Source: Candidatus Hermodarchaeum yapensis
GTDB taxonomy: Archaea; Asgardarchaeota; Hermodarchaeia; Hermodarchaeales; Hermodarchaeaceae
DNA: 64,000 nucleotides
Assembly: GCA_016840405.1 (NCBI GenBank)
Contig: JAEOSK010000002.1
Span: 32,001-96,000 of the forward strand
Direction of reading: 5' to 3'
Made by a program: the position numbers and the translations under genes. The notes beneath the pieces are model-generated. The model made no database searches. It had not been told where the DNA came from and saw nothing but the letters and a program-made list of their open reading frames with translations. Of this stretch, positions 331 through 36,075 are shown one piece after another (the first letter of the stretch is position 1; every line of letters begins with the position of its first letter).

Positions 331-370
331 CACTTGTCACACACCGAGTATATGGTACTATGCCTTCATA

Positions 371-518
371 TTTCTTATTTTTTGGCATGGGATAAAATTT
401 GAAAATAATAGAGCACCCTGTTGATGTTCGAATATCAGCTAAGATAACGGTACTAAGTTTCAAGAAGAGTAAGCGCTATTCCGAGAAAAAAGTTCAGTAA
501 GGCTAAGTATTGTGTGTA
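371..518 (+). repeat. Left-end repeat copy 1 (148 bp)
   Basis: Ungapped manual alignment to 1837-1984, about 120/148 identical. Confidence 0.9.
481..518 (+). repeat. 38-bp internal site copy 1
   Basis: CCGAGAAAAAAGTTCAGTAAGGCTAAGTATTGTGTGTA aligns with four other copies. Confidence 0.75.
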
Positions 519-597
519 AAGAAGCATCGATTATAGATTTTGCCAATAAAATAAATTGAAGTACGAATTCGAAAAAAGGGAGAATCACAGATTTTAA

Positions 598-1158
598 TCA
601 TTCATTCTTGCATGGATTCTTCGATTTTTCTCCCAATTTAAATTGTTTGATTTTATAGAACAACATGACCGCCAGTGCAACTAGGGTTGCTAATATACAA
701 AGATTACCAAGATTCCAAAAGATGATCACGAATTCGTTAATGGTAAAACGCCATCCCATAAATCCCCAAAGGCTTGAAGACCGGAAGGAGAGTCCAGCGA
801 AACCTCCAATTGAATACGACACAATAGCGAGAAATACTGATAAGATTATGATACCCTTTCCATATTCGGGGTTCTTCCTGTAAAGGTGGACGAAAATCAG
901 AATGGCTAGTTGTGCGCATAGGACATAACCGCCCACCATTATGATTAACTCATACGGAATATAGGAGATGCTTAAGATGATCTGGCGCAGAATTATGGAG
1001 ATGCGAAAGATGATCTGCTGTATGTGAAAGATGATCTGCTGCGGAATCATTCCTGAAACAACTATTATCCAGAGGATGGTGACGACACAGGCTAGGATGA
1101 GTGACATCAACACTATTTTTAGGAACTTGCGTTTTGCATTATTCATTCGACTTCCCAT
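598..1158 (-). CDS. Hypothetical membrane protein (~4 TM) with short internal QQIIF repeats
   Basis: ORF track; hydrophobic segments. Confidence 0.65.
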   Translation of the reverse strand: MGSRMNNAKRKFLKIVLMSLILACVVTILWIIVVSGMIPQQIIFHIQQIIFRISIILRQIILSISYIPYELIIMVGGYVLCAQLAILIFVHLYRKNPEYGKGIIILSVFLAIVSYSIGGFAGLSFRSSSLWGFMGWRFTINEFVIIFWNLGNLCILATLVALAVMLFYKIKQFKLGEKSKNPCKNE

Positions 1159-1159
1159 T

Positions 1160-1627
1160 TTATATCACTAACATTAACACAACAAATCCATCCGAGGATG
1201 CCGTAACCATATAGTTTTGGAGGATATGAAGAGTCAGCGTCATTTCAATCAATCTACTCCTCCACATATGTTTCTCGCTGTACCGATAGGGTTCGTTGTA
1301 CTCGCCGCCCTTGGCTTCCAACCAAAGCAGGTGGTGGTTCCAGCAATAGCAAAGCCTCCATTCAAACAGATCATAACCATCTTCAATCCTATAGTAACCA
1401 AGCGTGTAGGTTGTATTCCATATGGCACTCTTAATCGGAGCGTTGTACTTGTTTTTGATAGTAGACGGAAGAATATCTTGAGTCGAAACTAATACTCGAA
1501 AAGATTGTCTTTGTACTGAAGTAAAAGAAGCAAGTAGGTGCAGTATTATAATTACCGCGAATAGGTAAAGTTGTATGATTGGTGCTGTCTTGAATACCGC
1601 TTTATTCGGGTAGACAGCAGATTGCAC
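1160..1627 (-). CDS. Hypothetical protein, N-terminal hydrophobic helix, aromatic-rich
   Basis: ORF track; GGGGGAG upstream of GTG. Confidence 0.5.
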   Translation of the reverse strand: MQSAVYPNKAVFKTAPIIQLYLFAVIIILHLLASFTSVQRQSFRVLVSTQDILPSTIKNKYNAPIKSAIWNTTYTLGYYRIEDGYDLFEWRLCYCWNHHLLWLEAKGGEYNEPYRYSEKHMWRSRLIEMTLTLHILQNYMVTASSDGFVVLMLVI

Positions 1628-1706
1628 TTAACTCCCCTGAACATGAGAAGATAGCAATTCGAAGTACAAAAACACTCGTATTCACAGCTAGGAGCTAGAT
1701 GTTTTT

Positions 1707-1744
1707 CTGACGAAAAATTTTAGTAAGGCTTGGATTTGTAAGTT
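1707..1744 (+). repeat. 38-bp internal site copy 2
   Basis: CTGACGAAAAATTTTAGTAAGGCTTGGATTTGTAAGTT. Confidence 0.75.
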
Positions 1745-1804
1745 CAAACTAATTATTAGTTGATTAATTGAATTTGCTATACATTAGATGTAAACATATA
1801 ATTA

Positions 1805-1846
1805 CAGGAAAATATACCTCAATGTTGATTAAAATATTTCTTATTT
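1805..1846 (+). repeat. Right-end repeat copy 1 (42 bp)
   Basis: 36/42 identical, ungapped, to 8577-8618. Confidence 0.85.
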
Positions 1847-1984
1847 TTTGACAGAGCATAAGATATGAAAATAATAGAGTACCCTGTTGCTGTTCGAATA
1901 TCAGTTAAGAATACGGGACTATGTTTCGCGTAGAGTAAGCGCTATTCTGAGGAAAAATTTCAGTGAGCTCTGATTTTGTGAGTA
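1837..1984 (+). repeat. Left-end repeat copy 2, including 38-bp site copy 3 at 1947-1984
   Basis: Matches 371-518. Confidence 0.9.
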
Positions 1985-2304
1985 TTAAATCTTTTACACT
2001 CACAGGTTAACATAATAGAAAAACGAATAAAATAATCAAACTCTTAGGGAATACTCATCTTTAGTAAATATATGTCTGACTGAAACTCCTGCTGGTTCCT
2101 CCTTACTAAGGTCCAACGACTTGCAGTACTCTCTATTTGTTGAGTATTTTTTTGAATCCATCACACAACTCAGGGTTGCGGAGTATAACTCTGATTGTCG
2201 CAACTGAATCTGATAGATATTTGATTTCGTAGCGATTGGTTTTACGGAAAACCCTGGAAAGCATTTCGTAGTCTGGAGTATTACGCCATAAATACATGAG
2301 AACC

Positions 2305-2336
2305 AAAAAAAGAAAAGAAGGGAGGCCAAGCCTCCC
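2305..2336 (-). terminator. Hairpin plus U-tract after 2347..2835
   Basis: GGGAGGC-TTG-GCCTCCC followed by TTCTTTTCTTTTTTT on minus strand. Confidence 0.7.
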
Positions 2337-2346
2337 AAAAATGCAA

Positions 2347-2835
2347 TCACTCAGTTACAATAAGGGTTTCAATAAAGACCAGCACAGGTTCGTGTCCGAT
2401 ATAAAGCTCGACTCGCCAGTCATACTCGCCGGGTGTGAAGTAGTCCGCTTCGAAAATTATATAGTAAATGAACGCGTGATAAGGTCCTGGTAACTCTGGG
2501 TCATAGTAGTCTTTATCGTTGAAAACAAAGTGTTTGTTCTTAAGATCGATTTCCGTGTCGTCAATGAATAGCTTCGCTTCAAAAGGTCGCCATTCTGAGA
2601 GAAAATTACTCGGAATACCAAAGCAGCCGTGCCATACGTTACTTTGTTTACTAGCACTAATTTCCATACTAACCCACGGATGAATACGTTGGCCATGGCT
2701 CTCTATCCAATCTACAAACTCCCACGGACCATATTGTTTTGCTTGCACGGATTGTAGACAGGGGAGCACGCAGAACACGAGCAAACACACCAGACTTACT
2801 TTTAGCAACTGTTTCTGTTTCATTGAAATTTCCAC
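2347..2835 (-). CDS. Secreted hypothetical protein
   Basis: Signal peptide MKQKQLLKVSLVCLL...VQA; beta-rich mature part. Confidence 0.7.
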   Translation of the reverse strand: MEISMKQKQLLKVSLVCLLVFCVLPCLQSVQAKQYGPWEFVDWIESHGQRIHPWVSMEISASKQSNVWHGCFGIPSNFLSEWRPFEAKLFIDDTEIDLKNKHFVFNDKDYYDPELPGPYHAFIYYIIFEADYFTPGEYDWRVELYIGHEPVLVFIETLIVTE

Positions 2836-2948
2836 TCCAATTGTACGCCACTTCGTGGCGTCGAGTTAAAGTATGATATATATCGTATATAAGAGTTAGA
2901 GGTTTTTTTCTCTACACGCCGTTTTACTTAGATAAACATTTAACCATC

Positions 2949-2986
2949 AGATAAAAAAAGCCCAGTAAGGCTTGGGTTTATGAGTA
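2949..2986 (+). repeat. 38-bp internal site copy 4 (partial extra copy at 3041-3058)
   Basis: AGATAAAAAAAGCCCAGTAAGGCTTGGGTTTATGAGTA. Confidence 0.75.
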
Positions 2987-3106
2987 GTGTCTTTAGTGTT
3001 AGTGGCGATTTCTTCTTTCGCCACATAAGATGAGCGTTGCGTGATTCTGTGAGTAAAAGCATATCGGATGTCTTTGACCCACTTCTTTTAGTTTTTATTG
3101 GATTAT

Positions 3107-4063
3107 TCAAGGCTTCTTCCTGATAACCCCTGAGAAACCCATTAAGATTAATCCGATTAGGGAAATAAGCAAGGCTACCCCGGATAAAATGAGTGGAAGT
3201 GGATTCTCAGGCGTCATCCAGGGGTATCGAGGGCTTCCAGTGACCCCGGATAAATAGTATGTGAAGTAAAAAAATACTGCCAAGAGTATTCCCATTATGC
3301 ATACGGTGATACCACTCCACCGCATGATTGTACCAATTAGTGTAAAATCTCTTTTGAAGTAGAAATCTGACTCTATTGGTTCAAGTGAATGATAGAATCT
3401 TAGTATCCCTAAGACTGCTGCTCCAAATATGGACACAATTTGTAGTATTGGTAGAAAATAACCTAATGAGAATACAGATATTGGGAGAAAGTACCACGAA
3501 CCAAATGCAATTGTAAGGATACCTGCAATTATGAAAAAGGTAGTAGTAGTCTTTTGAATCGAATGGGATTTCGAATTAATTGGTATCTTCCTAAAAGCTA
3601 TTCCCCAGATTACCAAACCAAACCCGATTAGGAGATTAAGGGCTAAAAGCGTGTACAATTCGGAGAAAATGAAGATAATGAAAGCCGGTTGTGTAAGTAT
3701 TGTTGGCAACCAGAATTGGAAAGAAAGAAATAGTGCCGTAATTGTAATTCCTGTAAACAGGATAGAATAGCCAGTAACAAACAGGGCTATTTCAGACTGA
3801 TAAATTCTCCAATACCCCAAGAATGCGACCCCGATGAGAATTACACTTAGAAACTTCAGGAAAAAGATGACAATCCAGGTTCCTTGAGGTAACCCCATGT
3901 ATGCTCCTGCATTAAGAGAATAAGCAACAATTAGTAGGATCATTCCGATGATCCCAAGGTGAAAATAGACTCTTATCCGAGCCTCAGGCTGTTCAACAGG
4001 TTTTAGAGTTCGCTCTTTTGCACTTTCAATCGAAAATGTGATATTCGGCAAGAATTCCCGCAC
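3107..4063 (-). CDS. Multi-pass membrane hypothetical protein (~8 TM)
   Basis: ORF track; hydrophobic helices. Confidence 0.7.
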   Translation of the reverse strand: MREFLPNITFSIESAKERTLKPVEQPEARIRVYFHLGIIGMILLIVAYSLNAGAYMGLPQGTWIVIFFLKFLSVILIGVAFLGYWRIYQSEIALFVTGYSILFTGITITALFLSFQFWLPTILTQPAFIIFIFSELYTLLALNLLIGFGLVIWGIAFRKIPINSKSHSIQKTTTTFFIIAGILTIAFGSWYFLPISVFSLGYFLPILQIVSIFGAAVLGILRFYHSLEPIESDFYFKRDFTLIGTIMRWSGITVCIMGILLAVFFYFTYYLSGVTGSPRYPWMTPENPLPLILSGVALLISLIGLILMGFSGVIRKKP

Positions 4064-4131
4064 CCACAGGTTTGAAGGTGTATCGAATTAATAAGCGTTT
4101 AGAAAACAATCGTGAAGATCAAATTTCCCAA

Positions 4132-4169
4132 TTGATTAAAAAAATAAGAAAGGCCTGGTTTTGTGAGTA
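4132..4169 (+). repeat. 38-bp internal site copy 5
   Basis: TTGATTAAAAAAATAAGAAAGGCCTGGTTTTGTGAGTA. Confidence 0.65.
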
Positions 4170-4315
4170 AAAAGGCGTTAGTTATCCCAAGTTGACTATG
4201 AATTTTTTCCTCAGAGGGTTCTTCGCCCCCTTCATTACACTAATAAGGTGAATCTGAACCAGTAATGCTTGAGGGAATTGCCGGTAACGCCCCACACTAG
4301 GAGCTGACCGTCACC

Positions 4316-6274
4316 ATGGGGATGTCATACAAGAATCGTCTCCTCTTCTGTTCACTCATACTCATCTGCTTAATTGGCGCCACAAGTCTTTTTGCACCTG
4401 ACACTTCGGTAACGAGTCGGGCGGATTGGACCTATCCTAGTGGCTTCGACCCCCATGGTGGCCATATTGACCGATTGACTATGGTAGTTTATCCTTCAAA
4501 TGCGACATCGAGAGCTCTACAGGATTTGGAGGCGAACAATATCTATGCCTACGACGACAACGTCCCCCTTTCTTCCATCGATGAACTCGTAATGCAATCC
4601 AACATTGAGGTCAATACGGAACAGGGTACCGGCTTACTCTTATTCTCATTCCGCAATTGGTTCCCCGCAAACATTTCGGGGTATCGTCGTGCACTCGCTT
4701 ATGCACTAGATAAATACGTTGTATGTGAACGGTCAACCGATGGCTATGCATTGCCTATTGATGGGGTTATCCCTCTTGCCAACTCAACTTATTCGTATGA
4801 ATCCCAGATTACCGAGTATTTCTATAGTAAAGAAATTGTGAAAGCAAATGCTTCCTTGGAAGCTTGTGGTTTCCGCGATTTGGACGGTGACGGCTGGCGT
4901 GAATACGATGCAAACAACAACAGCCTATGGGACGCTGATATAGACGTTGATGATGGCAGTTGGGCTCACGATTTCTTATGGCTTCCCATATACGTATGGC
5001 TAGGTGACGATCCTGCTTTTCATGCTGCTGAAATACTGGTTGAAGGTATGGCAGAATGTGGGCTTCATGGAGCTGTTATTGAATGGGACCCATATACATA
5101 TACTGAGTGGCCCCCTGAGAAGGCCTGGTGTTCCATGTGGAATGGACCAATTTCTGAAGAGCCAAACTTCCTTTATTTATTACATACTGGTTCTTATACC
5201 AGTCAATACTTGGACTACAGTAATCCAGAGTATGATGTAAACGTCACTCTCATGTACGGGGCTTCAACGAAACTAGAGGTTCGAGACTGGGCCTGGAACT
5301 GTTCTCAGATTCTTCTCCAGGATATGCCAATCATCCCGTGCTATAACGATGTCATCACCCAAGCTTACTGGACCGATCTGTGGGAGGGCTATGTGAATAT
5401 GCTGGGGGTCAATCGGTTGGGGAATAATCCCTGGACCTTTACCCACCTCCGCCTTAAGGATGAAGCGGGTGGTCCATTTGGTCCCTACCCCACAGAATAC
5501 CTTTGTGCCCTTACTGAGGGGATGGATTCTACGAATATTCGAGTATCCAGCAGTCGTTACGCGGATCGGGTGTTTATGAATGTGTATAGTCGTTTATGGC
5601 AGATGGATCCCCTCACCTGGGAGGAAGTCCCTGACCTCGCATACGACTGGATGATTGAACCCACTGAGCCTTCCGGGGATATCCGCTTGGGACAGAAGTT
5701 CACCTTCCACCTTTATGAGAACGTAACCTGGCATGATGGGACGCTTTTCACTGCTCAGGATGTTGCATTCAGTTTTAATCATATTTGGAAAGGGATGAGT
5801 AGTTGGGAAGGCGGTTTCTATACAACTGACCCTGTCGATAATATCTATCGCATCGACACCCCTGACGATTATACTGTTGTCATTTACACCAACCAAACTG
5901 GATACTTGGAATTTTATAAAGGCACACATCACTATATCCTGCCAAAACATATTTGGGAACAACATCTATGGAATGGAACCGACTCTCTCATGGATTGGGA
6001 GCCTTCAACACCACAGGATTTGGTAGGAACTGGCCCGTTTCGTTGGGTGAATCGAGTTCCCGGTTCGTATATCGTGTTGGATCGCCATTATAACTGGCAT
6101 TTCACTGTTGATCAGTCTCTACGAACACCAATGATTCCATGGACTCTATACATATTCATTTCTCTGGGAATTATCATTGTTCTCATCCAGATCGGGATTC
6201 TCGGATATCTCCTCAATAAGCGAAGGGCGTCTAAGACCAAACATCAATATAACCAGAAAAAGGGTGACGCCTGA
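4316..6274 (+). CDS. ABC transporter solute-binding protein family 5 (DppA/OppA-like), C-terminal TM anchor
   Basis: FTFHLYENVTWHDGTLFTAQDVAFS, VGTGPF; signal peptide; TM plus basic tail. Confidence 0.85.
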   Translation: MGMSYKNRLLFCSLILICLIGATSLFAPDTSVTSRADWTYPSGFDPHGGHIDRLTMVVYPSNATSRALQDLEANNIYAYDDNVPLSSIDELVMQSNIEVNTEQGTGLLLFSFRNWFPANISGYRRALAYALDKYVVCERSTDGYALPIDGVIPLANSTYSYESQITEYFYSKEIVKANASLEACGFRDLDGDGWREYDANNNSLWDADIDVDDGSWAHDFLWLPIYVWLGDDPAFHAAEILVEGMAECGLHGAVIEWDPYTYTEWPPEKAWCSMWNGPISEEPNFLYLLHTGSYTSQYLDYSNPEYDVNVTLMYGASTKLEVRDWAWNCSQILLQDMPIIPCYNDVITQAYWTDLWEGYVNMLGVNRLGNNPWTFTHLRLKDEAGGPFGPYPTEYLCALTEGMDSTNIRVSSSRYADRVFMNVYSRLWQMDPLTWEEVPDLAYDWMIEPTEPSGDIRLGQKFTFHLYENVTWHDGTLFTAQDVAFSFNHIWKGMSSWEGGFYTTDPVDNIYRIDTPDDYTVVIYTNQTGYLEFYKGTHHYILPKHIWEQHLWNGTDSLMDWEPSTPQDLVGTGPFRWVNRVPGSYIVLDRHYNWHFTVDQSLRTPMIPWTLYIFISLGIIIVLIQIGILGYLLNKRRASKTKHQYNQKKGDA

Positions 6275-6275
6275 G

Positions 6276-8159
6276 ATGAGACACAAACCAAGAATAACCC
6301 TTTGGGTAGGTGTGGTTTTTTTTTGTATACTCATCTTCATTCAGGGCTGTTCCTCCCTCTCCTCACAACCCATTCCATCAAAGACGTGGACCTATCCCGA
6401 CGGTTATGACCCCCACGGCGGATACCTGGACCGGGTGACCTTCGTCGTCTATCCCCCCGAAGACGAACAACTGGGGCTCCAAGCCCTTCAGGCGAACATT
6501 ATCTATGCGTGGGACGAGCATGTCTCTGCCGAGAACATTACCGAGCTTGAAGCGGCACCCGGTGTGGAGGTTGCCACTGAACCCGGGGATTTGTATCGCA
6601 TGTTTGCGCTTGACTGTGGAACATTCCCCATGAATATTACCGGATACCGGCGAGCTATTGCTTTTGCCCTAGATAAATATGCTGTCGTTCAGGGGTCAAC
6701 AGATGGCCTTGGATTACCCCAAGATTGTGCAATTCCACGCGCTCTGACCAATTGGACCTATGAAAGTCAGCTCACTGAAACCTACTATGCACAAGATATC
6801 GTCAAAGCTAACGCCTCCTTGGAGGCAGCAGGTTTCCGAGACCTCACGAGTGACGGCTGGCGAGACTACGATGCGGATTTGAGTGGGACACTAACCTCTG
6901 GCGATAAGAATAGTCATGAAGTCGCGATCAGTTTTTTATATACAGGACATATTCCCTTGACCAATGCTATCACATTGGCAATAGAAGGATTGGCTAAGTG
7001 TGGTATTCGTGCTTATACCGTCCCTTGGGACCCTTACGATCCTATTGGACGATATTATGATGTAGGGACTCATACAATCAATCTTAAGGAATCCGGGGAT
7101 CTGTTTTTGTTGTATCACTTTTTCCATAGTTCCACAGGTGCCAACGAATGGTATTTTGGAGGCTGGAGGAACGACACTTACAATCAATACGCTGAGAACC
7201 TGATGGCTGCACGAACCAAAGAGGAGGTTCAGTACTGGACCTGGAAATGTCAGGAGATTCTTTGGTATGAACAGCCCATGATTGTCTGCTACAACGACGT
7301 CTTTACCAATGCTTATCGAACGGACATCTGGGAAGACTACATCAACATGCAAGGTCGGAACCGGATCGGGAACGGCTACAGCCTCGTGCACATCAAGCTC
7401 AAGGAAGAAGCAGGCGGTCCCTTCGGGTGTTTCCCTACCGAGTATATCATGAGCCTGAACGAAGGGCTAGATACGACCAACTATCTACGGAGCAATTCAG
7501 AATACACAAAAACGGTATTCCAGCTCGTCTACGAGAGACTTTGGACCTACTCACCCTATGATTGGACCCCCCAGCCGTCACTCGCCTATGCTTGGGAAAC
7601 GGAAGCTACTGTTGCCTCCGGGGATATCCAAGAGGGGGAGAAGTACACTTTCCATCTCTTTGAGAATGCCACCTGGCACGATGGAACTCCGGTCACTGCC
7701 GATGATGTGGCATTTAGTGTGTCACTGGGATTACAAGATCCGTACAACGCGGAAAACTATCAACACGTTTACAAGACCAACATTGTCGATAACATGACGA
7801 TTGAAATCTTCACCAACGCAACGGGCTTCTTCGAGTGGACACGGGCCACGGGTTTTACCGTCTATCCCGCACACATCTGGTCACTCCCATCTAGCATCTT
7901 CTCGTGGGTTCCAACCGTGCCTGAACTGGTGGGGTCCGGACCCTACATCTTCGCTGCCTATGTCCAAGGGCAATATGTGGTGTTGGACCGCAATCCTGAG
8001 TGGCACTTTGCTGTATCACAACCTCCACGCACTCCATGTCCTGTAACAGTTGATTGCTTTTGGTGTTATCCTTTGCTCTTGGGGATCATCATTATTCAAG
8101 TTTGCATCTTAGTGTATTTGGTTAATCGGCGTCGCAGTAGGGACGCTTCCAAGAAATGA
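6276..8159 (+). CDS. ABC solute-binding protein family 5, paralog of upstream gene
   Basis: TWHDGTPVTADDVAFS, VGSGPY; start moved to ATG 6276. Confidence 0.85.
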   Translation: MRHKPRITLWVGVVFFCILIFIQGCSSLSSQPIPSKTWTYPDGYDPHGGYLDRVTFVVYPPEDEQLGLQALQANIIYAWDEHVSAENITELEAAPGVEVATEPGDLYRMFALDCGTFPMNITGYRRAIAFALDKYAVVQGSTDGLGLPQDCAIPRALTNWTYESQLTETYYAQDIVKANASLEAAGFRDLTSDGWRDYDADLSGTLTSGDKNSHEVAISFLYTGHIPLTNAITLAIEGLAKCGIRAYTVPWDPYDPIGRYYDVGTHTINLKESGDLFLLYHFFHSSTGANEWYFGGWRNDTYNQYAENLMAARTKEEVQYWTWKCQEILWYEQPMIVCYNDVFTNAYRTDIWEDYINMQGRNRIGNGYSLVHIKLKEEAGGPFGCFPTEYIMSLNEGLDTTNYLRSNSEYTKTVFQLVYERLWTYSPYDWTPQPSLAYAWETEATVASGDIQEGEKYTFHLFENATWHDGTPVTADDVAFSVSLGLQDPYNAENYQHVYKTNIVDNMTIEIFTNATGFFEWTRATGFTVYPAHIWSLPSSIFSWVPTVPELVGSGPYIFAAYVQGQYVVLDRNPEWHFAVSQPPRTPCPVTVDCFWCYPLLLGIIIIQVCILVYLVNRRRSRDASKK

Positions 8160-8194
8160 CAAATCTAAACTTGTGTTTAATGGGAGTCGAGAGA

Positions 8195-8359
8195 TTATTT
8201 TAATTTATTGCGGTGGGGTTCGGCGTAAAAGTTCATGACGCAGCAGAAAGGGTGAAAGGTTTCAGAATGGGTAACGCCTTCGGGGATGAAATAGGATTTC
8301 CCGGGATTCAACTCATGGGTCATGCCACTGATGGTGAGTGTAAAGGAGCCTTCGACGGT
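8195..8359 (-). pseudogene. 3' remnant of cupin-domain gene
   Basis: TVEGSFTLTISGMTHELNPGKSYFIPEGVTHS...FYAEPHR*, preceded by in-frame stop, no start. Confidence 0.6.
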
Positions 8360-8548
8360 TCACGGGGCCCCCAGCTCACTTGCTGGAATCAGTATCAACG
8401 TCGTGTCTGGAAGAACGGTTAAGGAGAAAGAATTCAATTTTATTTATGGGATTGGAAAAGAGTGATGAACCGTACTGATAACGTGGTGATCGCACTGTTC
8501 ATTTCTGGCGTGTGTGTTGCGGTGGAGAATCACCATCAAACGGCTGAA

Positions 8549-8618
8549 AATATTCCTCAGGTGCAAGAATATACCTCAGGAAAATATACCTGAGTGGTTA
8601 TTGAAATGTTTCTTATTT
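8549..8618 (+). repeat. Right-end repeat copy 2 with three tandem AATATWCCTSAG sites
   Basis: Sites at 8549-8560, 8568-8579, 8583-8594; core 8609-8618. Confidence 0.8.
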
Positions 8619-8705
8619 CCATCACTCAATCACAAAGCATAATAAGCCAAAATTGGAAGCCAAGCCAGAGACAACACCTAGATTTCCATTCGGAGACGAC
8701 TTAAC

Positions 8706-11479: not shown

Positions 11480-11682
11480 ACATCCTAAAGAGATTCAGGA
11501 CAAGTCATACTAGCTGGAAAGTTCCATTTAAGATGCCACCCTTTACTTAGGCGAATACTTAACCATCAGTGAGTGAGACACGGAAAATCAATACGTTTAT
11601 TAGGTGGCTAGAAGGTCGTGGTTGCAGTTAGAGCGGGTGAGCAATAGCTACACGTCGTCTACATAAAACCACACTGAGGATT

Positions 11683-28155: not shown

Positions 28156-28221
28156 AAAACGTGAGGTTTAGTATTTCTTATTAATGGAAAACCGTAGATT
28201 AGTAAATTTGAACGCCAGATG
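28156..28221 (+). repeat. Family-B element fragment F
   Basis: AAAACGTGAGGTTTAGTATTTCTTA resembles 30806-30830; AAATTTGAACGCCAGATG exact with 32125-32142. Confidence 0.7.
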
Positions 28222-28549
28222 ACTTTCTAAATAAGTATGGTATCTTTTGGCTTCTTCATAATTGGAGACTCCCGGATTGTTTTTTGGTGAAGTATAGGTG
28301 GGGCTCAGGGTTCCTTTAGCAAAAATAGAAACTGGCTCATTTTCATTATGAGGATCTCATTCTACCAGAAAAGATTTCGATAGCACTGTGAGAAGACGAT
28401 TATGTATTCCGTTTTGGAGCTTAAGCCATGAGAACGGTCCTGCCAGATGAGTTCCTCAGTGGGAATCTCGGGGTCTAAGTAGCACTCGGGGTACCATGTC
28501 GTGGTACATCAGCTTGAACCACACCCAAACGAAGGCGTCTGCGAGCTGA

Positions 28550-30007
28550 TTATCCGCCTTTCACGCCTTTGGCTATGCGGTCGCCGATTTCCTTATCGAT
28601 GTTGCGCCAGTATTCAAAGGCCCGCTGCAGAACGGGTTCGGACACGCCGTTTTGCAAATGCCCCACCACATTGGACACCAGCCGGTCGCGCTGCGCATCG
28701 TCCATGACCTTGCGCACCAGTGTGCCAGGTTGACCGAAATCGTCGTCGTCCTTGCGTTTGGTGTAGGCGGCACGGATGAACTCGCCGCTGGCACTCCAGA
28801 TGGCCACCTCGGGATACCGCTCAGGGTCGGCTTTGGGGCCGCCTTTTGAGTTGGGCGTATAGACAGGATCTGAGACGTTGTCAATCCGCATGGCCCCGCC
28901 CTTGCTGTAGTTGTGCACTGGTACTTTGGGTCGGTTGACTGGAATCTGCTTGTAGTTGACACCTAGACGAGCCCGGTGGGCGTCAGCATATGAAACCAGA
29001 CGGGCGAGCAGCATTTTATCCGGGCTCGGACCGATTCCGGGGACGAGGTTGTTCGGCCCGAACGCCGCCTGCTCAATCTCAGCGTGAAAATCGCTCGGAT
29101 TACGGTCCAGCGTCAGCTGGCCCACTTCGTGTACCGGGTAATCTCCGTGGGGCCACACCTTGGTCAGGTCGAAGGGGTTGAATCGGTAAGTCTCGGCCTC
29201 TTTGAAGGGCATGATCTGGACTTTCAGGGTCCAACTGGGGTAATCCCCCCGCTTGATCGCCTCGAACAGATCGCGGCGGTGGTAATCGGCATCAACACCG
29301 GCAATCCGGTCGGCCTCTTCCTGGGTGAGGAAGTCAATGCCCTGGTTTGTCTTGAAGTGATACTTCACCCAGTATCGCTCGCCTTTGGCATTGACCCACA
29401 TAAATGTGTGGCTCGAGTAGCCGTTCATGTGCCGATAGCTTTTGGGGACTCCACGATCACTCATCAAGATGGTGACTTGATGGGCCGTCTCGGGTGAAAG
29501 CGTCCAGAAGTCCCACTGCATGTCGTTATCACGCAGGCCGCTGTCCGCACGGCGCTTCTGGGAGTGGATGAAGTGCTGGAACTTCATAGGATCACGTACG
29601 AAGAAAACAGGGGTGTTGTTTCCCACCATGTCATAATTGCCTTCTGTGGTGTAAAACTTCAGCGCAAAGCCGCGTACATCCCGCCAGGTATCGGGACTGC
29701 CGCTTTCGCCAGCTACAGTGGAGAATCGGGCCAACACCTCGGTCTTCGTGCCCGGTTGGAACACGGCTGCCTTTGTATAAGTACTGACGTCCTTGGTCAC
29801 CTCAAAGTATCCGAAGGCCCCGGAACCCTTTGCGTGGGGCTGGCGGTCTGGAATCATCTCCCTGTTAAAGTTGGCCATCTGCTCCATCAAGTAGTGGTCC
29901 TGCAGCAGAATTGGGCCATCAGGCCCTACGGTAAGAGAAAACTCATCGCTGGCTACTGGGATCCCGGCATCTGTTGTTGTGGGTTTTAGTCTTTTTTTCT
30001 TTGCCAA
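28550..30007 (-). CDS. katE: Monofunctional heme catalase (small subunit)
   Basis: [31 protein letters not shown]; GC visibly above flanks. Confidence 0.95.
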
Positions 30008-30106
30008 TACTTAATCCTCCAAAATTTGATTGATTAGTAATAGTGCTATTCGACTTTAAAATTCATTACTTCTTCTTAATCGGCAAAGGTTTTTACTTTC
30101 TAATTA

Positions 30107-30151
30107 TTAGCACTGACAAACCTAACCAGAAAAGGGTGATGTTTTGTGTGC
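30107..30151 (+). repeat. Family-B element fragment E
   Basis: Resembles 30784-30828. Confidence 0.6.
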
Positions 30152-30286
30152 TCCATGCTTGAACAGTTCATCAATAATTAGACTTAAATAAGATGTCTTG
30201 TTTAAGCTCTTCCTTGAGGGATAGGTTTCTGGTAATTAAGAAATCTATCAGGAAGATATTCAGGTATTAAAAAAAGGTTGGTCAAA

Positions 30287-30583
30287 ATGAAGTATATCGC
30301 CTATTGGGAGGCTGACATGGAAAAATTAGATGCGCTTGTGAAGAAAAATGCAGAACTTATAGCGATTTACGAAAAAGGCACCGATAAGTATCCTAAGGTC
30401 AAATATGGCCCTTACAACATTATTAGCGAAAGTGGAAATCGAGGGTTTGTAATCCTTGATGTCGATGATCCCCATCAATTAGTTCGATGGAACCTTCATT
30501 ACGCTGGCTTATCTGAGTGGACCTTCGTTCCGATTTATAGTACTGCAAAAACCACCGATGTTTATTTGAAAGAGATGAAGTAA
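30287..30583 (+). CDS. DUF3303-like small protein
   Basis: MKYIAYWE..GFVILDVDD..W..WTFVP. Confidence 0.65.
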   Translation: MKYIAYWEADMEKLDALVKKNAELIAIYEKGTDKYPKVKYGPYNIISESGNRGFVILDVDDPHQLVRWNLHYAGLSEWTFVPIYSTAKTTDVYLKEMK

Positions 30584-30691
30584 ATCCCCAAAAAACGAAA
30601 CGCAATGGAATTAATACCTCCACATCTCCTAGAAGATAGATTAACTACTACTCAGTCCTTTGAATTAGGTCAATAGTCTATAAACAACAAA

Positions 30692-30925
30692 AGGAAAAGA
30701 GGATCTTTTTACCCCAGAACTACCACGTGTTAATGTGTTTATGACCTAACACGTAAAGGTTGGAATTCATCCAACAACGCGTGTTAGCTTGACTAACTAA
30801 ACCGGAAAACGGTGATGTTTAGTGTTTCTAACACGTGTTAGCTTTTCCGTCAAGATGAATAGATGAGTGTTTCCAAACTCTCCCAAATTCAGGACAAGTA
30901 CATCGCAAATAAACTTTAAACGTTC
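30692..30925 (+). repeat. Family-B element copy A
   Basis: TCTTTTTACCCCAGAACTACCACGTGTT, CTAACACG hairpin, palindrome CTAACACGTGTTAG 30828-30841, TAAACTTTAAACGTTC. Confidence 0.85.
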
Positions 30926-30947
30926 AGCGAGGGTGTTTAAAGGTGAA

Positions 30948-31019
30948 ATGATCGACGTACAGCTTCTTAAACAGTTTTTTCTAGACCCACAATTTGCTCC
31001 CTAGTCATACAGAAATTAT
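30948..31019 (+). pseudogene. 5' stub homologous to recombinase-like stub at 32183
   Basis: MIDVQLLKQFFLDPQFAP*SYRNY aligns ungapped with MTEALLLEEFLLNPNRTENTRERY; same upstream motif. Confidence 0.5.
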
Positions 31020-31075
31020 ATCTAACACAAACATTATATTAAGCACAACCACTATGTATAACATGGTGAAAATAA

Positions 31076-31318
31076 GTGACGACGATTTCCATTAAAGAGG
31101 ATACAAGAAAACATCTCCTCAAAATTGCAGCTGATCTTCAGCGGCAACAAGGTCGAAGAGTCGACTTTGATGCCACTATTAAGCATTTAATCCACTTTTT
31201 TGAGCACCAGAAAAAAGATATAGCTTCGTGGGAGTCATTTACAACACCAGAGCCTGGACTAGATTTTGATGAACTTTATCAACTACTGATACAGGAGCGA
31301 CTCAAAGACAATGGCTAA
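31076..31318 (+). CDS. vapB: VapB-like antitoxin
   Basis: MTTISIKEDT..L..VDFD..I..L; overlaps PIN gene. Confidence 0.7.
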   Translation: MTTISIKEDTRKHLLKIAADLQRQQGRRVDFDATIKHLIHFFEHQKKDIASWESFTTPEPGLDFDELYQLLIQERLKDNG

Positions 31319-31736
31319 AGAAACTAAGCCTGCAGTCTTCGTTCTTGATGGTGGTGTCCTAATCGCACTGGCTACAGGAGAAAAAAGAACAGAAGATTTA
31401 GCTCAGGAAATTGCAGCAGGAAACAGCCTATTTGCTTGTACTGAACTAGCAATGAGTGAACTAGCTTACATTATCTGTAGGAAAGCAGGGTGGGAAACAG
31501 CATCAAAAAAAGTAAAGAGCCTTATTAAATCAGCTACTATCCAAACAATTCCTGCTTCGTCATTGTGGCAACTTTCAGCGCAACTAAAGTGCAAGGCTGC
31601 TATTGCACTTCCTGATTGTTTCACCATTGCTGCAGCCCAGATCCTCAAGGGTGCTGCACTTTTTGTACGAAAAGAAAAGGAATTAAAAAAAGCCATTGAC
31701 CACAGATTAGTACCCAACATCCTACAATTTCTGTAA
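31311..31736 (+). CDS. vapC: PIN-domain toxin
   Basis: VLDGGVLI, SELAY, LPDCFTIAAA. Confidence 0.8.
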   Translation: MAKETKPAVFVLDGGVLIALATGEKRTEDLAQEIAAGNSLFACTELAMSELAYIICRKAGWETASKKVKSLIKSATIQTIPASSLWQLSAQLKCKAAIALPDCFTIAAAQILKGAALFVRKEKELKKAIDHRLVPNILQFL

Positions 31737-31966
31737 TTACAATTCAATGGAACAACGCATGAATGTCAGCTATAATCCTAGTTAATGAAATCTTCAATTG
31801 TGTTTCCACCTTTGACTTTAGTCCATTCTATCCTAATTGTTCTAAATATGATAATATGCTAAAAAATACTGTCTAATGCAGGTGGAGCTATCTTTAGTTA
31901 CATCTATGTCTTCGAACTGTGACATAGTGAAAGTTCTCAACCTGTGCTAATATCTTGATTACTAAT

Positions 31967-32160
31967 GGGGGTCTTTTTATCCCAGAGCTACCACGTGTTG
32001 CCATGGTAGTTACTAACACGTGATAGAGCTTACGAGGCCTAACAACAACGTGTTAGCCCTAAAAGCCTTATACACGGAAAGTCGTAGGAAAGTGTTTCTT
32101 ATCCTTGCAAAACAGTGTAAAAGAAAATTTGAACGCCAGATGTATAAACTTTAAACGTTC
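31967..32160 (+). repeat. Family-B element copy B
   Basis: Closely similar to 34820-34947; shares start and end motifs with copy A. Confidence 0.9.
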
Positions 32161-32182
32161 TGCTAGAATGTTTTACTGTGCC

Positions 32183-32356
32183 ATGACTGAGGCACTGCTT
32201 CTCGAAGAATTCCTTCTCAACCCGAACCGTACAGAGAACACGAGGGAACGTTATAAACGGGTCCTCCGCGAGTTCATCAAGTTTTTTCCTTCTAAGCTAG
32301 TGAAGGAAATTACGGGAAAAGACGTTCTAGAATACCTCTACACCAAGCCTGAAGGG
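32183..32356 (+). pseudogene. Truncated tyrosine recombinase N-terminal (SAM-like) domain
   Basis: EEFL..RTENTRERYKRVLREFIKF...EITGKDVLEYL fits Xer/integrase N-terminus; no catalytic domain follows. Confidence 0.6.
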
Positions 32357-33040
32357 TCCTTTGGCTCCTGGTGGTTACCCTGCTTTGGGTTTTCGTGGTG
32401 TTTGCGATTGTGTGGGGTGCTAGGTCTGCAGTTCCTTGGTTCAGGGTTGTATGGGTGTTGTTCGTGATTTAGCATTGCTTGTCGCGGCATTTTTTATTTT
32501 TGCATATAATCTAATTGATATCGAAGACACAATCTACATCCAGTTCTTCATACTCCCTTTCCTCGCACTCCCTCTAGCTGTATTGCTTCCAGCTTTGCCC
32601 CTTGTCTTTATTTTCTTTGGAAATCAACGACAGCTTCTTGGTAAAATTTAGCAAAATTCTCTATCTTCAGGGTGTGGGTAGTCCTTATTGTGAGGTTGCT
32701 TTGAGCATGCTTTCGACGGTGTGGATGGATTGTTCATGCAGGTGAGCAGCGAGGTTTATTTGAAGGAAAAGCTTGTTCGATGGATTAGTCAATTAATTAA
32801 AAGTTGTGTATTGGGTGGGGAAACACGCCTAAGCGCCGTCCTTGATGTCTCTCTTGGTTTTCTTCTTCCACCACCGGGTTCGGTAAGCAAAGTACCAGAC
32901 TCCCAGCCAAGTGACACCAAAGAACAGCAAATTCCTCGATCGCCTCGAGAAGGCCCGGCAATTCGGGTTCCGACAATGTTTGGATTTGATTAAGGAAAGG
33001 ATTATGGAATGAATTGTTCTACCAGTAATCTTTCTCTTAC

Positions 33041-33877
33041 TCAGCCTGCAGGATTCCAGCTGAGGGCGAAGACACCAGCGAAAACGAGGAAGACGCCGCC
33101 AATCAAGGTGAAGCGGGGAATCATTGTTAACACGCCAGATACGATAAGGACGGCACCCGCCCTTACTCTATCCTTGGAGGTAATGCTATGGTAACCTATA
33201 GCTGGCAAGATCATTCCTATACATAGAGTAAAAATGAACGTTACCATAAAGGAGTCCCAAATCCCCAAGGAAAAAGGCCATTGCAAAGGGTCTGCCAAAC
33301 GGGCTACCACGCTGATGTAAAGCAAGACAAGGGTGAGAATACTGAGGACGATTCCAGCTAGGGCAAGTGCCCGAGCCGTATCATCCCTCCCCATATTAGT
33401 TCCCTTTGTCAGATTACTACTGATAAGGGGAGTTGACGTTGGAGCGGGTGGTGCAGAGGAAGTAGGTAGCTTCACTGGCTTTTCATTTAAAACCCATTTT
33501 AAGATGAGTATGCCAGCGATTAGGATGGAGAAGCCGCCAATGAAAAATAATGTTAGCGCGCCACAAATGATGAAGGTGGCACTATTTACATTTTTATCCT
33601 TGGGTGTAATACTTTGCATTACTAGGTAGGGAAGGATCACTCCGAAGAAGAGGCCACTAACAAGTAATATCAAAACCATCTGTGAACCGTACATCAAAAC
33701 GAGGAAGGAACTTGGCAAAAGCATGACAGCGTAAACGCCGATAAGACCAGGAAAATTAATCACCACTATGTTGATGGTGATTCCAGCCATGACGAAGTTC
33801 CTAGCCATGTCTTCTATGCCCAGACAATTCACCCTCGTTGAGGTCTCCCTTAATAACCATTTAATGAACGTTCCCAA
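33041..33877 (-). CDS. Membrane protein with internal tandem duplication (probable start 33808)
   Basis: Two units AR..AGI..GxILP..SITxKD..IGG..AG. Confidence 0.7.
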   Translation of the reverse strand: MGTFIKWLLRETSTRVNCLGIEDMARNFVMAGITINIVVINFPGLIGVYAVMLLPSSFLVLMYGSQMVLILLVSGLFFGVILPYLVMQSITPKDKNVNSATFIICGALTLFFIGGFSILIAGILILKWVLNEKPVKLPTSSAPPAPTSTPLISSNLTKGTNMGRDDTARALALAGIVLSILTLVLLYISVVARLADPLQWPFSLGIWDSFMVTFIFTLCIGMILPAIGYHSITSKDRVRAGAVLIVSGVLTMIPRFTLIGGVFLVFAGVFALSWNPAG

Positions 33878-34122
33878 GGAGTTCTCATCGAATGGCCTTA
33901 TTTAAATCCTTATTAAGCCAACCGGAAAGTTATGAAGGTTGTATGACTAGCTGATATGCATCATACAAGTCAAGGATACCCCAACCACGATGCACGTTAA
34001 ATGATACAGAATCATAGTGGTTGAGTGTTGGAAGGCTGCCTGGTGTCGTCATCTCTGAGAATTGTTCTAGAATTAGCTAAACTGGCTGCATCGAAATCTG
34101 CTACAAATACCGTTATTCCATG

Positions 34123-34608
34123 CTAAGAGCTGTCGACGATACGTGTCTCCATATCCACGATTTCTTCAGGTTGCTTTGACAGCGAAGGCATAACCTGGGT
34201 TTTACCCTGAACCCACCAATCCAACGTTACCATACTTGCCAGCACTACACCGGTTAGGGTGGCACCCCGAGCTGCTTCGGCTGCTTGAGCGGGATCAAGG
34301 TGAGAAAACAACAACATAGGATTCCAATTAAGGAAGAGCAGCAGCGGAGTCAAAAAAATCAGCCAAAATGACAGACCAAACAACCAACACCATTTGACCC
34401 GACGGTACGCACACACTTTACAGGCAACACCGTTGAAACGGAAGAATCCAATTGTCCTATACCACGTTGGTTTGATTCGCACAAGGCATTTTTCGCAAAA
34501 TAGGTGCCCGCATAAGGCACACCGATCATAGGCCAACTCTTCGGAATGAAGGGAACATTGACTACCCTTGGGAAATGCCTCTACATGGATTTGGCTTTCA
34601 CGGAACAA
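34123..34608 (-). CDS. B-box-like zinc-finger membrane protein
   Basis: CSLH..RCALCGHLFCEKC..CKVC then two TM. Confidence 0.6.
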   Translation of the reverse strand: MFRESQIHVEAFPKGSQCSLHSEELAYDRCALCGHLFCEKCLVRIKPTWYRTIGFFRFNGVACKVCAYRRVKWCWLFGLSFWLIFLTPLLLFLNWNPMLLFSHLDPAQAAEAARGATLTGVVLASMVTLDWWVQGKTQVMPSLSKQPEEIVDMETRIVDSS

Positions 34609-34811
34609 AAACGCAGCCGTTATGCTTCAATCCTATCTTGATAGACTTTAAAATAATAAGACCAGATTATCCAAAGGCGCCCCTTTTCTTCGTAAAGAGT
34701 AATCTCTTCAGTTTCCATGACTATCCCTCAATGAAATTTACCACAATCGACCATAAAAACCTTGATATGGGACTTCCTAGGTTTGAACGGATGTTTATCA
34801 TTTGTTTGTGG

Positions 34812-34952
34812 GGAAAAAGAGGGTCTTTTTATTCCAGTTACCACGTGTTAGGTGGTAGTGACTAACACTTGATAGGGCTTGCGACGCCTTACAACTACGT
34901 GTTAGCCCTGAAAGTCTTATTCACGGAAAGTCGTAGGAAGGTGTTTCCAAAC
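34812..34952 (+). repeat. Family-B element copy C
   Basis: Matches copy B and the 5' and 3' parts of copy A. Confidence 0.9.
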
Positions 34953-35114
34953 ATCCTCAAAGGCATAATAGGTACCTAGCTGCTTTGTTGAAGTATTCTG
35001 CCTGCTAGGTTCAAGGGCTGATCGCGGTTTCATTTCTGGAGATTTTTAACTCGAGCAATTCAATTTTAGACTTTGGAATAATTATCCTATAAAACGATAT
35101 AACAATATTTTAAT

Positions 35115-36017
35115 ATGAGAACATCATCTCATATATTGAGAATCAGAATAGGCTTGGAGTTGAGTTTATTGAGTAATAAGATATCGGTTTTGTGGAATCG
35201 GATTCCCATTATTATTCAAGCATTAATTTTGATGTTATCTGTTACCATGATTGGAACCTTATCATGGTCGCTATTATTAATCCTTACACCATTTCCTTGG
35301 ACTATCCTCATCATGGGTGGCATATTATTTGGCTTTGTTCTCTTTTTTAGTGGTCGTTGGGGTCATAAAGCTACACAGGAGTTTAGATGGACCAATTTTC
35401 GATTAGTCAAGCTGCCATCAAGTGTTTGGCTTTGGAGTATTGTAGCCATAATACTCTTCGTAGTCATTTCGCAAGCAATGCTTGTAGTAACTTTCAGGCT
35501 TATCCCATTTCCTTCTGAGTTATTCACCATCTATAATCTCGAAGGAGTGCCAGTTTGGGTGGCTTGGCCATTTGTGTTCATGGCCGCAATGGTTGCAGGG
35601 ATCTGTGAAGAAATTGGTTTTCGAGGATATGGACAGGTTCCCCTTGAAAAACGGTACGATCAAAAGTTAGCAATCGCATTTGTTTCAATTACATTCATAA
35701 TCTTCCATCTTAACCAAGCATGGTTACCTCCGATTTTTATTCACGGTCTAATACTAAGTGTGTTCTTGGGTTATCTTGCCTATCTATCTGGCTCATTAAT
35801 TCCCGTAATGATCGCCCATACCAGTATGGATGTCTTTCTATTCTCGTATTGGTGGAGTGACCTTCTTGGAACATTTATTGAGCTACCAATTTACATTACA
35901 GGAATTGATATCAGCTTCATATTCTGGACATCAATCCTGATAATATCAACGATATTATTTCTTTGGACAATGCAAAAGCTCAATGTCATTCGCCAACAGA
36001 AGCGCCAAAAACGGTAA
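35115..36017 (+). CDS. CPBP/CAAX (Abi) intramembrane metalloprotease
   Basis: EEIGFRG, FIIFH, IAH..D. Confidence 0.88.
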   Translation: MRTSSHILRIRIGLELSLLSNKISVLWNRIPIIIQALILMLSVTMIGTLSWSLLLILTPFPWTILIMGGILFGFVLFFSGRWGHKATQEFRWTNFRLVKLPSSVWLWSIVAIILFVVISQAMLVVTFRLIPFPSELFTIYNLEGVPVWVAWPFVFMAAMVAGICEEIGFRGYGQVPLEKRYDQKLAIAFVSITFIIFHLNQAWLPPIFIHGLILSVFLGYLAYLSGSLIPVMIAHTSMDVFLFSYWWSDLLGTFIELPIYITGIDISFIFWTSILIISTILFLWTMQKLNVIRQQKRQKR

Positions 36018-36075
36018 TTTTTAGTGTTTCTAACACGTGTTAGCTTTTCCTTCAAGGTGTTAGTATGAGTGGTTC
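36007..36075 (+). repeat. Family-B element fragment D
   Basis: Close match to 30806-30873 including CTAACACGTGTTAG; contains the CAAX gene stop codon. Confidence 0.85.

Follow-up and report, generated by a model that had tools for sequence, protein, structure and literature searches.

The window, the whole 64,000-nucleotide stretch of Candidatus Hermodarchaeum yapensis DNA analysed here, carries at its fwdD-rhomboid locus an 8.2-kb island that is absent from 10 of 12 relatives and holds a six-site satellite of a gene-cassette array. Its features, in window coordinates, are:

368-518, plus strand: island left arm, copy 1, with the direct-repeat core TTTCTTATTT at 371-380
491-530, plus strand: site 1, type A left half, with an eroded core TGTGTGTA at 511-518, closing the island left arm (37.5 bits)
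519-1736, minus strand: cassette 1, encoding a membrane protein of 186 aa (598-1158), plus an ORF of 155 aa (1160-1627)
1717-1756, plus strand: site 2, type A left half, with an eroded core TGTAAGTT at 1737-1744, right flank gone
1834-1984, plus strand: island left arm, copy 2 (85% identity over 134 bp), with its core at 1837-1846
1957-2004, plus strand: site 3, core intact at 1977-1984, followed by a class C cassette start
1985-2978, minus strand: cassette 2, containing a 104-aa ORF (2036-2350) and a 162-aa ORF (2347-2835)
2959-2998, plus strand: site 4, type A left half, with the core TATGAGTA at 2979-2986, right flank gone
2987-3047, plus strand: remnant of a cassette tail; in strains L132 and L134 the corresponding cassette stands before the same 318/270-aa cassette
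3028-3067, plus strand: site 5, type B, previously called partial, core intact at 3048-3055, class 1 right flank (49.8 bits)
3056-4161, minus strand: cassette encoding a polytopic membrane protein of 318 aa (3107-4063), with a site-to-site homologue in the htrA array of conspecific strains
4142-4181, plus strand: site 6, eroded type A left half, core intact at 4162-4169, eroded class 2 right flank
4316-8159, plus strand: two SBP_bac_5 genes, inside the island and past the last cassette site
8546-8618, plus strand: island right arm, with its core at 8609-8618

The island is bounded by 10-bp direct repeats and a right-arm segment (1779-1846) precedes the second left arm; the core is present three times, and joining position 380 to 8619 recreates the fwdD-rhomboid spacing of the relatives (62-65 bp). 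The proposal in the initial annotation that the sites are nested in an integrative element fits the repeats and the patchy presence of the island, but no integrase was found within it or on either flank and the nesting is incidental; searching the relatives for the island arms gave no match, nor did a look-up of the rhomboid's identity. The cargo between the sites lies on the minus strand and is hydrophobic (5, 1, 1, 1 and 7 TM-like segments), as had been described, with no Pfam family over cut-off, but this does not extend to the arrays of relatives, where cargo occupies both strands (50 minus, 31 plus). The 162-aa ORF has a signal-peptide-like N-terminus and the 186-aa protein is 37% identical to a portion of a cassette gene from another genome, whilst the cassette at 3056-4161 matches its counterpart in the L132 and L134 htrA arrays from site to site at 78.5% identity over 1,088 bp. 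The class C start at site 3 has ~88 bp in common with htrA arrays (83-94% identity) and includes a 28-bp imperfect 11-6-11 palindrome (1977-2004).

All five direct copies reported for the window (481, 1707, 1947, 2949 and 4132) were recovered as a single 39-nt family with 64-77% identity to the reference copy, that at 2949 being ~1 nt off in register, and the supposedly partial copy at 3041 is indeed a site but a complete sixth one, with a second left-half type. They share one orientation and sit between real-looking genes, so that their description as intergenic stands except for a 56-aa ORF (2940-3110), the sole ORF overlap, which touches two copies. A matrix built from the five window copies detected four held-out copies on contig C63 of the same genome at 47.7, 41.9, 38.0 and 22.2 bits, against a top match of 18.6 bits for five column-shuffled matrices. 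Within this genome the motif is limited to the window cluster and a larger array beside htrA on C63; motif clusters occur in 10 of 14 genomes of the same Hermodarchaeia genus and none was found outside it. The main platform of the system is this sedentary array at htrA, not the window island, and the gene packets of the system have a median size of 1.2 kb.

Each cassette has a semi-conserved start of ~20 nt, belonging to one of several classes, and a conserved end of type A or B (~25 nt plus an A-tract), and each site extends ~20 nt beyond the core into semi-conserved right-flank classes. The core TGTGAGTA, set in a TTT-GTGAGT-AAAA frame, lies at all junctions and any end joins any start: all 12 combinations of left type and right class were present among 98 unique junctions. 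Linkage among 77 junctions gave 40 pairs with the left flank alone in common, 61 with the right flank alone and seven with both; linkage on the left persists as far as position -1 (0.93 vs 0.64), and that on the right begins at +8 (0.74 vs 0.45). These values place the exchange point at the invariant core and not at the variable 8-nt centre originally proposed. That centre follows a strong consensus, GCTTGGRT for type A, moves with the left-hand cassette and is ruled out as a spacer by the flank linkage. Nor are the flanks inverted arms of a tyrosine-recombinase core site; the arms are poorly symmetric, unlike those of typical core sites, which counts against the explanation favoured below. 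The RYYYAAC...GTTRRRY pair of attC spans none of 77 sites on either strand, hairpin folding of array and re-circularised junctions gave mean z values of -0.3 to +0.1 on both strands, RNAalifold predicted no pairs on 55 sites, and there was no Rfam or tRNA match that would indicate a structured RNA.

The initial annotation had read the blocks as a cassette exchange platform without attC, and this was supported by shuffling at the sites both across and within species. Neither observation that the annotation had set against its reading was made: the sites are limited to arrays, with neighbouring genes in all four orientations, and block content does change at these borders. The same cassettes recur in different orders, rejoined at the core, and ArsR-Acr3, alcohol dehydrogenase, esterase and SnoaL-like pairs take varying positions behind the same CAAX-protease/htrA anchor. 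Strain L133 and contig C63 are identical over 10,677 bp and 99.9% identical over 4,156 bp, with one additional 1,749-bp packet in L133 lying exactly between two sites; the same site is where L132 and L134 diverge, and one MAG contains two htrA starts with different first cassettes.

The main array starts at an anchor site 8-10 nt ahead of the htrA start codon, which has only ~10 nt in common with cassette sites and is joined to at least five different cassette starts. In 12 of the 14 genomes of the genus a palindrome, TCACA-N3-TGTGA, precedes htrA and is repeated between hsp20 and the gene of a PadR/HTH regulator. The anchor is the right half of this palindrome, a probable heat-shock-repressor operator; the repressor may therefore, speculatively, gate insertion at the anchor. 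We rejected the anchor as a chromosomal dif since the centre of the palindrome is 3 nt and it recurs at hsp20.

No recombinase gene adjoins any array, no integrase lies on either side of the htrA array and none co-occurs with arrays. XerA was the only recombinase found across the genus, and in five genomes it lies 10-19 kb from the anchor; the surroundings of xerA yielded no conserved dif, and the candidacy of XerA is weakened by a different conserved 11-6-11 dif-like palindrome elsewhere in the genus. IntI (TIGR02249) remained below cut-off in five genomes (86-91% complete), the matches being XerA or tRNA-type integrases. Serine recombinases, Y1 transposase (IS200/605), Cas1 and reverse transcriptase were discarded, their cognate enzymes not being found in the genomes searched (PF07508 in 0/15, PF00239 in 0/6, PF01797 in 0/6, PF01867 in 0/5 and PF00078 in 0/5), as was IS110, which is patchy (2/5 genomes) and does not carry the site. 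The SSV-type integrase (PF16795) was likewise not found in the genomes searched, IMG/VR gave no match to a viral carrier, and no related autonomous element encoding a matching integrase turned up in the searched MAGs, which are incomplete assemblies, or in IMG/VR. Our best guess is that a tyrosine recombinase catalyses the exchange in trans, for which host XerA is a tentative candidate, an integrase encoded by some visiting or unassembled element a rather doubtful one and an unrecognised recombinase an unlikely one.

Like sedentary chromosomal integrons and CALINs, archaeal ones included (Ghaly et al., 2022; PMC9668308), the system consists of mobile cassettes arrayed at a fixed insertion site, in which co-oriented sites separate cassettes of 1-3 genes, first cassettes vary behind a fixed anchor, order is shuffled, the distal end is eroded and satellites lack an integrase. 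Unlike them it has no RYYYAAC...GTTRRRY pair, hairpin or IntI, two neighbouring cassettes each contribute part of its asymmetric site, its cargo lies on both strands and its anchor abuts htrA rather than an integrase gene. Acinetobacter Xer/pdif dif modules (PMC6449649) and archaeal XerA/dif (PMC2958812) resemble it in having accessory modules bounded by short sites, an unlinked recombinase and host Xer as candidate, and the class C start matches an 11-6-11 palindrome at 9 of 11 positions. However, class C alone fits, the general consensus having no such 28-bp palindrome; the exchange point lies left of the 11-6-11 spacer, with +8 and +9, which would belong to the left arm, moving with the right cassette, and the genus conserves a different dif-like site. 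One deletion junction is compatible with exchange at the Xer 6-bp spacer. The short central block between T-rich and A-rich flanks also recalls the circular-intermediate junction of Tn916/Tn1549 (PMC5871717), as a resemblance only: the ends of Tn1549 are inverted over 11 bp, its crossover is variable (5-7 nt) and its integration targets are random AT-rich sites (PMC5871717), whereas the centre here is invariant and no such integrase is present.

We read the window cluster as a partly decayed branch of an integron-like shuffling system that spans the genus but has neither integron sites nor the integron enzyme. We think it rather likely that these sites join the gene cassettes of a system confined to one Hermodarchaeia genus and catalysed in trans, the window cluster being an eroding satellite. 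Excision and insertion of cassettes, probably in circular form, would take place through site-specific exchange at the core, where GTGAGT would form the 6-bp overlap, a tyrosine recombinase supplied in trans performing the exchange. That the sites merely serve, ahead of cargo genes, to bind the heat-shock repressor or some other transcription factor, with no role in recombination, is highly improbable. The full palindrome at htrA and hsp20 would suit such a role, but cassette sites carry only the half-site, are confined to arrays, and keep their orientation whatever the genes beside them (25 minus/minus, 10 plus/minus, seven plus/plus and three minus/plus); they also match strain-level indel breakpoints, and junction linkage, strain indels and the uniform site orientation largely refute this reading.

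Shuffling driven by homology, in which the repeats are portable terminator or operator modules and RadA recombination or slippage swaps cassettes, would be comparable to what has been proposed for T4 PeSLs. The core matches the operator half-site, one window site scores as a minus-strand terminator, and the G000/L133 deletion may reflect slippage or homologous recombination, because the A-run length points to a crossover on the right-hand side of the core, inside ~19 bp of identity (the junction fits a stretch of 19-30 bp), which also counts against the favoured explanation. We nevertheless regard this as quite improbable, since anchor, type A and type B left halves with 8-10 bp alone in common join every right class at the core, and homology of that length is too short for RadA. 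Tandem accretion as in ICE/IME/CIME is unlikely, but less so: the operator half-site would be attB, small elements whose attP arms are related would stack via a helper integrase and internal junctions would be chimeric attI, not a shuffling platform. Such accretion at one att site is documented (PMC5704250), with an integrase in trans and left/right-arm chimeric junctions formed through a short direct-repeat core; here too differing arms meet through a short core common to all junctions, the island at 368-8618 with its three 10-bp cores directly fits the pattern, and class C, at the anchor in 4/9 junctions (P-C enriched, chi-square p = 0.03), could be native htrA flank. The units, however, are single-gene-sized, are common to and reordered across the species of the genus, and are gained and lost internally; none contains an integrase, even as a remnant, and the searches yielded no autonomous member.

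Returning to cassettes exchanged in trans, we can envisage, tentatively, a third kind of cassette platform independent of integrons and dif modules, in which XerA or an unrecognised Asgard recombinase would act on asymmetric, unstructured sites, a heat-shock operator would be co-opted as insertion site, stress would derepress htrA and open the array, and islands would carry satellites as mobile integrons do. Overlap of the insertion site with a stress operator would be a counterpart, reached along another path, to the SOS control of integrons, and use of such asymmetric sites by XerA or a new recombinase would widen the known chemistry of cassette capture. We found no paper describing this cassette system in the literature searched (mostly non-subscription). 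It offers Asgard archaea a route for gene gain and reordering that is invisible to integron finders and evident at strain level, and it defines a small testable substrate (the anchor, two end types and several start classes) with a short list of candidate enzymes.

The window satellite may have been seeded from htrA-type cassettes, have moved with or into the island and now be eroding. Core mismatches affect 3/6 window cores and 15/66 elsewhere, a difference that is not significant (p = 0.16), and the satellite is identical in the two other assemblies carrying it, which counts against the favoured explanation. What the window adds is that the system reaches secondary loci inside islands; further satellites occur in G014 and G006.

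All five direct copies reported in the initial annotation are present in the window sequence and belong to one repeat family, and its 'partial' copy at 3041 is likewise a site, but a complete one of type B (core 3048–3055); this brings the window total to six sites, whose cores lie at 511, 1737, 1977, 2979, 3048 and 4162. Scanning with a matrix, as the annotation had proposed, the first version being built from five window copies alone, yielded four further copies (22–48 bits) on contig C63 of the same genome, which carries an array at htrA, against a best score of 18.6 bits in 2.7 Mb for shuffled control matrices. After iteration the left halves comprised two types, A (TTCAGTAAGGCTTGGRTT) and B (TGTGAGCGTTGCGTGATTC), the core TGTGAGTA was invariant and the right flanks fell into several classes, with a consensus around the core of TTT-GTGAGT-AAAA. 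The site-bearing block has a GC content of 38%, compared with 45% in the core genes flanking it.

In relatives, 53 site-to-site segments of 69–7,016 bp (median 1,181 bp) carried recurring gene families, which were reordered from one relative to another behind the same CAAX-protease/htrA genes. When 77 junctions were compared in pairs, the left flank alone was common to 40 pairs, the right alone to 61 and both to 7, and identity tracked the left cassette through position −1 and its right-hand neighbour starting at +8. This switch in linkage places the exchange inside TGTGAGTA or at its border, and every left type was found joined to every right class. The conspecific strain L133 was 100% identical to contig C63 across one stretch of 10,677 bp and 99.9% identical across another of 4,156 bp, and had one additional 1,749-bp cassette between two sites, whilst the strains L132 and L134 carried other cassettes from that site onward; both the reordering across relatives and this strain-level cassette show blocks varying at site boundaries, as had been anticipated. 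The A-run at the junction on C63 suggests that the deletion relative to L133 involved a crossover to the right of the core, inside a stretch of about 19 identical bp. The genes on either side of the sites occur in all four combinations of direction, so the sites have no fixed position relative to transcription starts, which speaks strongly against the regulatory reading that the annotation had set against its own. The repeats are real, and the comparative data show, with high probability, that they act as cassette joints. A 28-bp segment (82% identical) occurs upstream of a cassette gene (window 2923–2950) and between core genes (11542–11569); it probably serves as a promoter and suggests that cassettes bring promoters of their own.

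The main array begins at an anchor, TTACTCACA-TTT-TGTGAGTAA, which lies 8–10 nt ahead of the htrA start codon and has the core as its right half. At least five different cassette starts follow the anchor among different genomes, and one MAG contains two versions, with different first cassettes. Of 14 genomes of the genus, 12 contain the anchor palindrome, which in most cases separates a weak HSP20 match from a PadR/HTH_20 regulator gene. A similar palindrome, and no cassette site, accompanies a more distantly related htrA (69% identical). In Pyrococcus, the repressor Phr binds a palindrome before hsp20 (PMC10746257). By analogy, we infer that the anchor is a heat-shock operator older than the array and co-opted as its target. 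Divergent hsp20-like and PadR/HTH_20 genes surround a TCACA-N3-TGTGA palindrome at locus L162:4618–5933 (near 29262 on contig C28 of the window's genome), which together with htrA forms a probable Phr-like heat-shock regulon. The class C cassette start (window 1977–2072) has hsp20-promoter-like spacing and an extra operator half-site, and may therefore be htrA's own native promoter, travelling as a cassette start; an exact bacterial XerD arm (ATTTAACATAA) is present in some class C copies (locus L060), possibly by chance.

The window cluster is a satellite of this cassette system. In 10 of 12 relatives fwdD lies next to a rhomboid gene, the other two holding unrelated inserts, and the gap between the two genes is an insertion hot spot; the inserts are a 413-aa gene in genome G012 and about 620 bp in G009 (L205:2070–3311 and L206). 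In the window, TTTCTTATTT at 371, 1837 and 8609 marks the island bounds, and excising 381–8618 in silico gives a fwdD–rhomboid spacing of 65 bp versus 62–65 bp in relatives, which defines an island of 8.2 kb made up of two units in tandem. The proposed nesting in an integrative element stands in that this island surrounds the cluster, but the island contains no integrase. Both units start with a shared 134-bp arm (85% identical between them); each arm terminates in a cassette site, after which the cassettes differ. Cassette 3056–4161 aligns from site to site with a cassette in the htrA arrays of L132 and L134 (78.5% identity over 1,088 bp), and just ahead of it a 61-bp remnant corresponds to the tail of the preceding cassette in those arrays; the class C start at 1985–2072 is common to many htrA arrays. 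Half of the cores and two right flanks of the cluster are eroded, and it is unchanged in two other assemblies. Genomes G014 and G006 also hold satellites, at core-gene loci. A second family of co-oriented ends (window 28156–36075), with an RTTTCTWA-like core, resembles the island core at 371/1837/8609; 22 bp of such an end abut a cassette core in G007 (L036:1932–1953). In the window's genome, at 36116–36180 of contig C57 (L186), the right arm of the island recurs as a third copy (79% over 67 bp) that has no left arm to match.

The consensus TTT-GTGAGT-AAAA would suit a homology-dependent tyrosine recombinase with a 6-bp overlap. The window's genome encodes two tyrosine recombinases, XerA, which scores above the NF040815 cut-off, and, on another contig, an integrase next to a tRNA gene; XerA is the sole one found across the genus. 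In five genomes its distance from the anchor is 10–19 kb, a proximity that may be simple synteny, and the conservation in the genus of a different, 11-6-11 dif-like palindrome counts against XerA as the cassette enzyme; that palindrome, sitting between divergent genes, may itself be an operator. Palindromes of this kind (TTTCGAATAA-ACTGGT-TTAAACGTAA type) occur at C68:2093 and C33:41724 (L177) in the window's genome, and the C68 type, a candidate chromosomal dif or operator, recurs in about 11 same-genus genomes between TrmB-like and oxidoreductase-like genes. At the presumed position of the dif-specificity motif, assigned by eye, the genus XerA has a conserved S-P-L (L004:1117–2061); the motif is XKX in other archaeal XerA (PMC2958812). 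Searches of 5–15 genomes (72–91% complete) were negative for IntI, serine recombinase, Y1 transposase, Cas1 and reverse transcriptase, and showed IS110 to be patchily distributed. With a putative catalytic mechanism included, the full statement is moderately probable.

In how it works the array is like a sedentary integron with CALIN-like satellites (PMC9668308), but it tests negative for all three integron features, attC, hairpin and IntI. The shuffling of cassettes at the sites supports the cassette platform without attC described in the initial annotation. Its sites also test negative as Xer dif modules (PMC6449649; PMC2958812). Tandem accretion of CIMEs (PMC5704250) resembles the array and fits the outer island well; the inner units, by contrast, have the size of genes and differ in order from species to species. 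Our literature search found no published description of this Hermodarchaeia array of site-specific cassettes. The motif was absent from an IMG/VR search. A pattern search found it in 9 of 14 same-genus and none of 46 other genomes; a profile model found clusters in 10 of the 14 and, outside the genus, single weak matches only (E at least 0.001). Motif-bearing sequences are labelled Hermodarchaeota or Promethearchaeota, and HtrA proteins that are 96% identical are labelled Hermodarchaeia.
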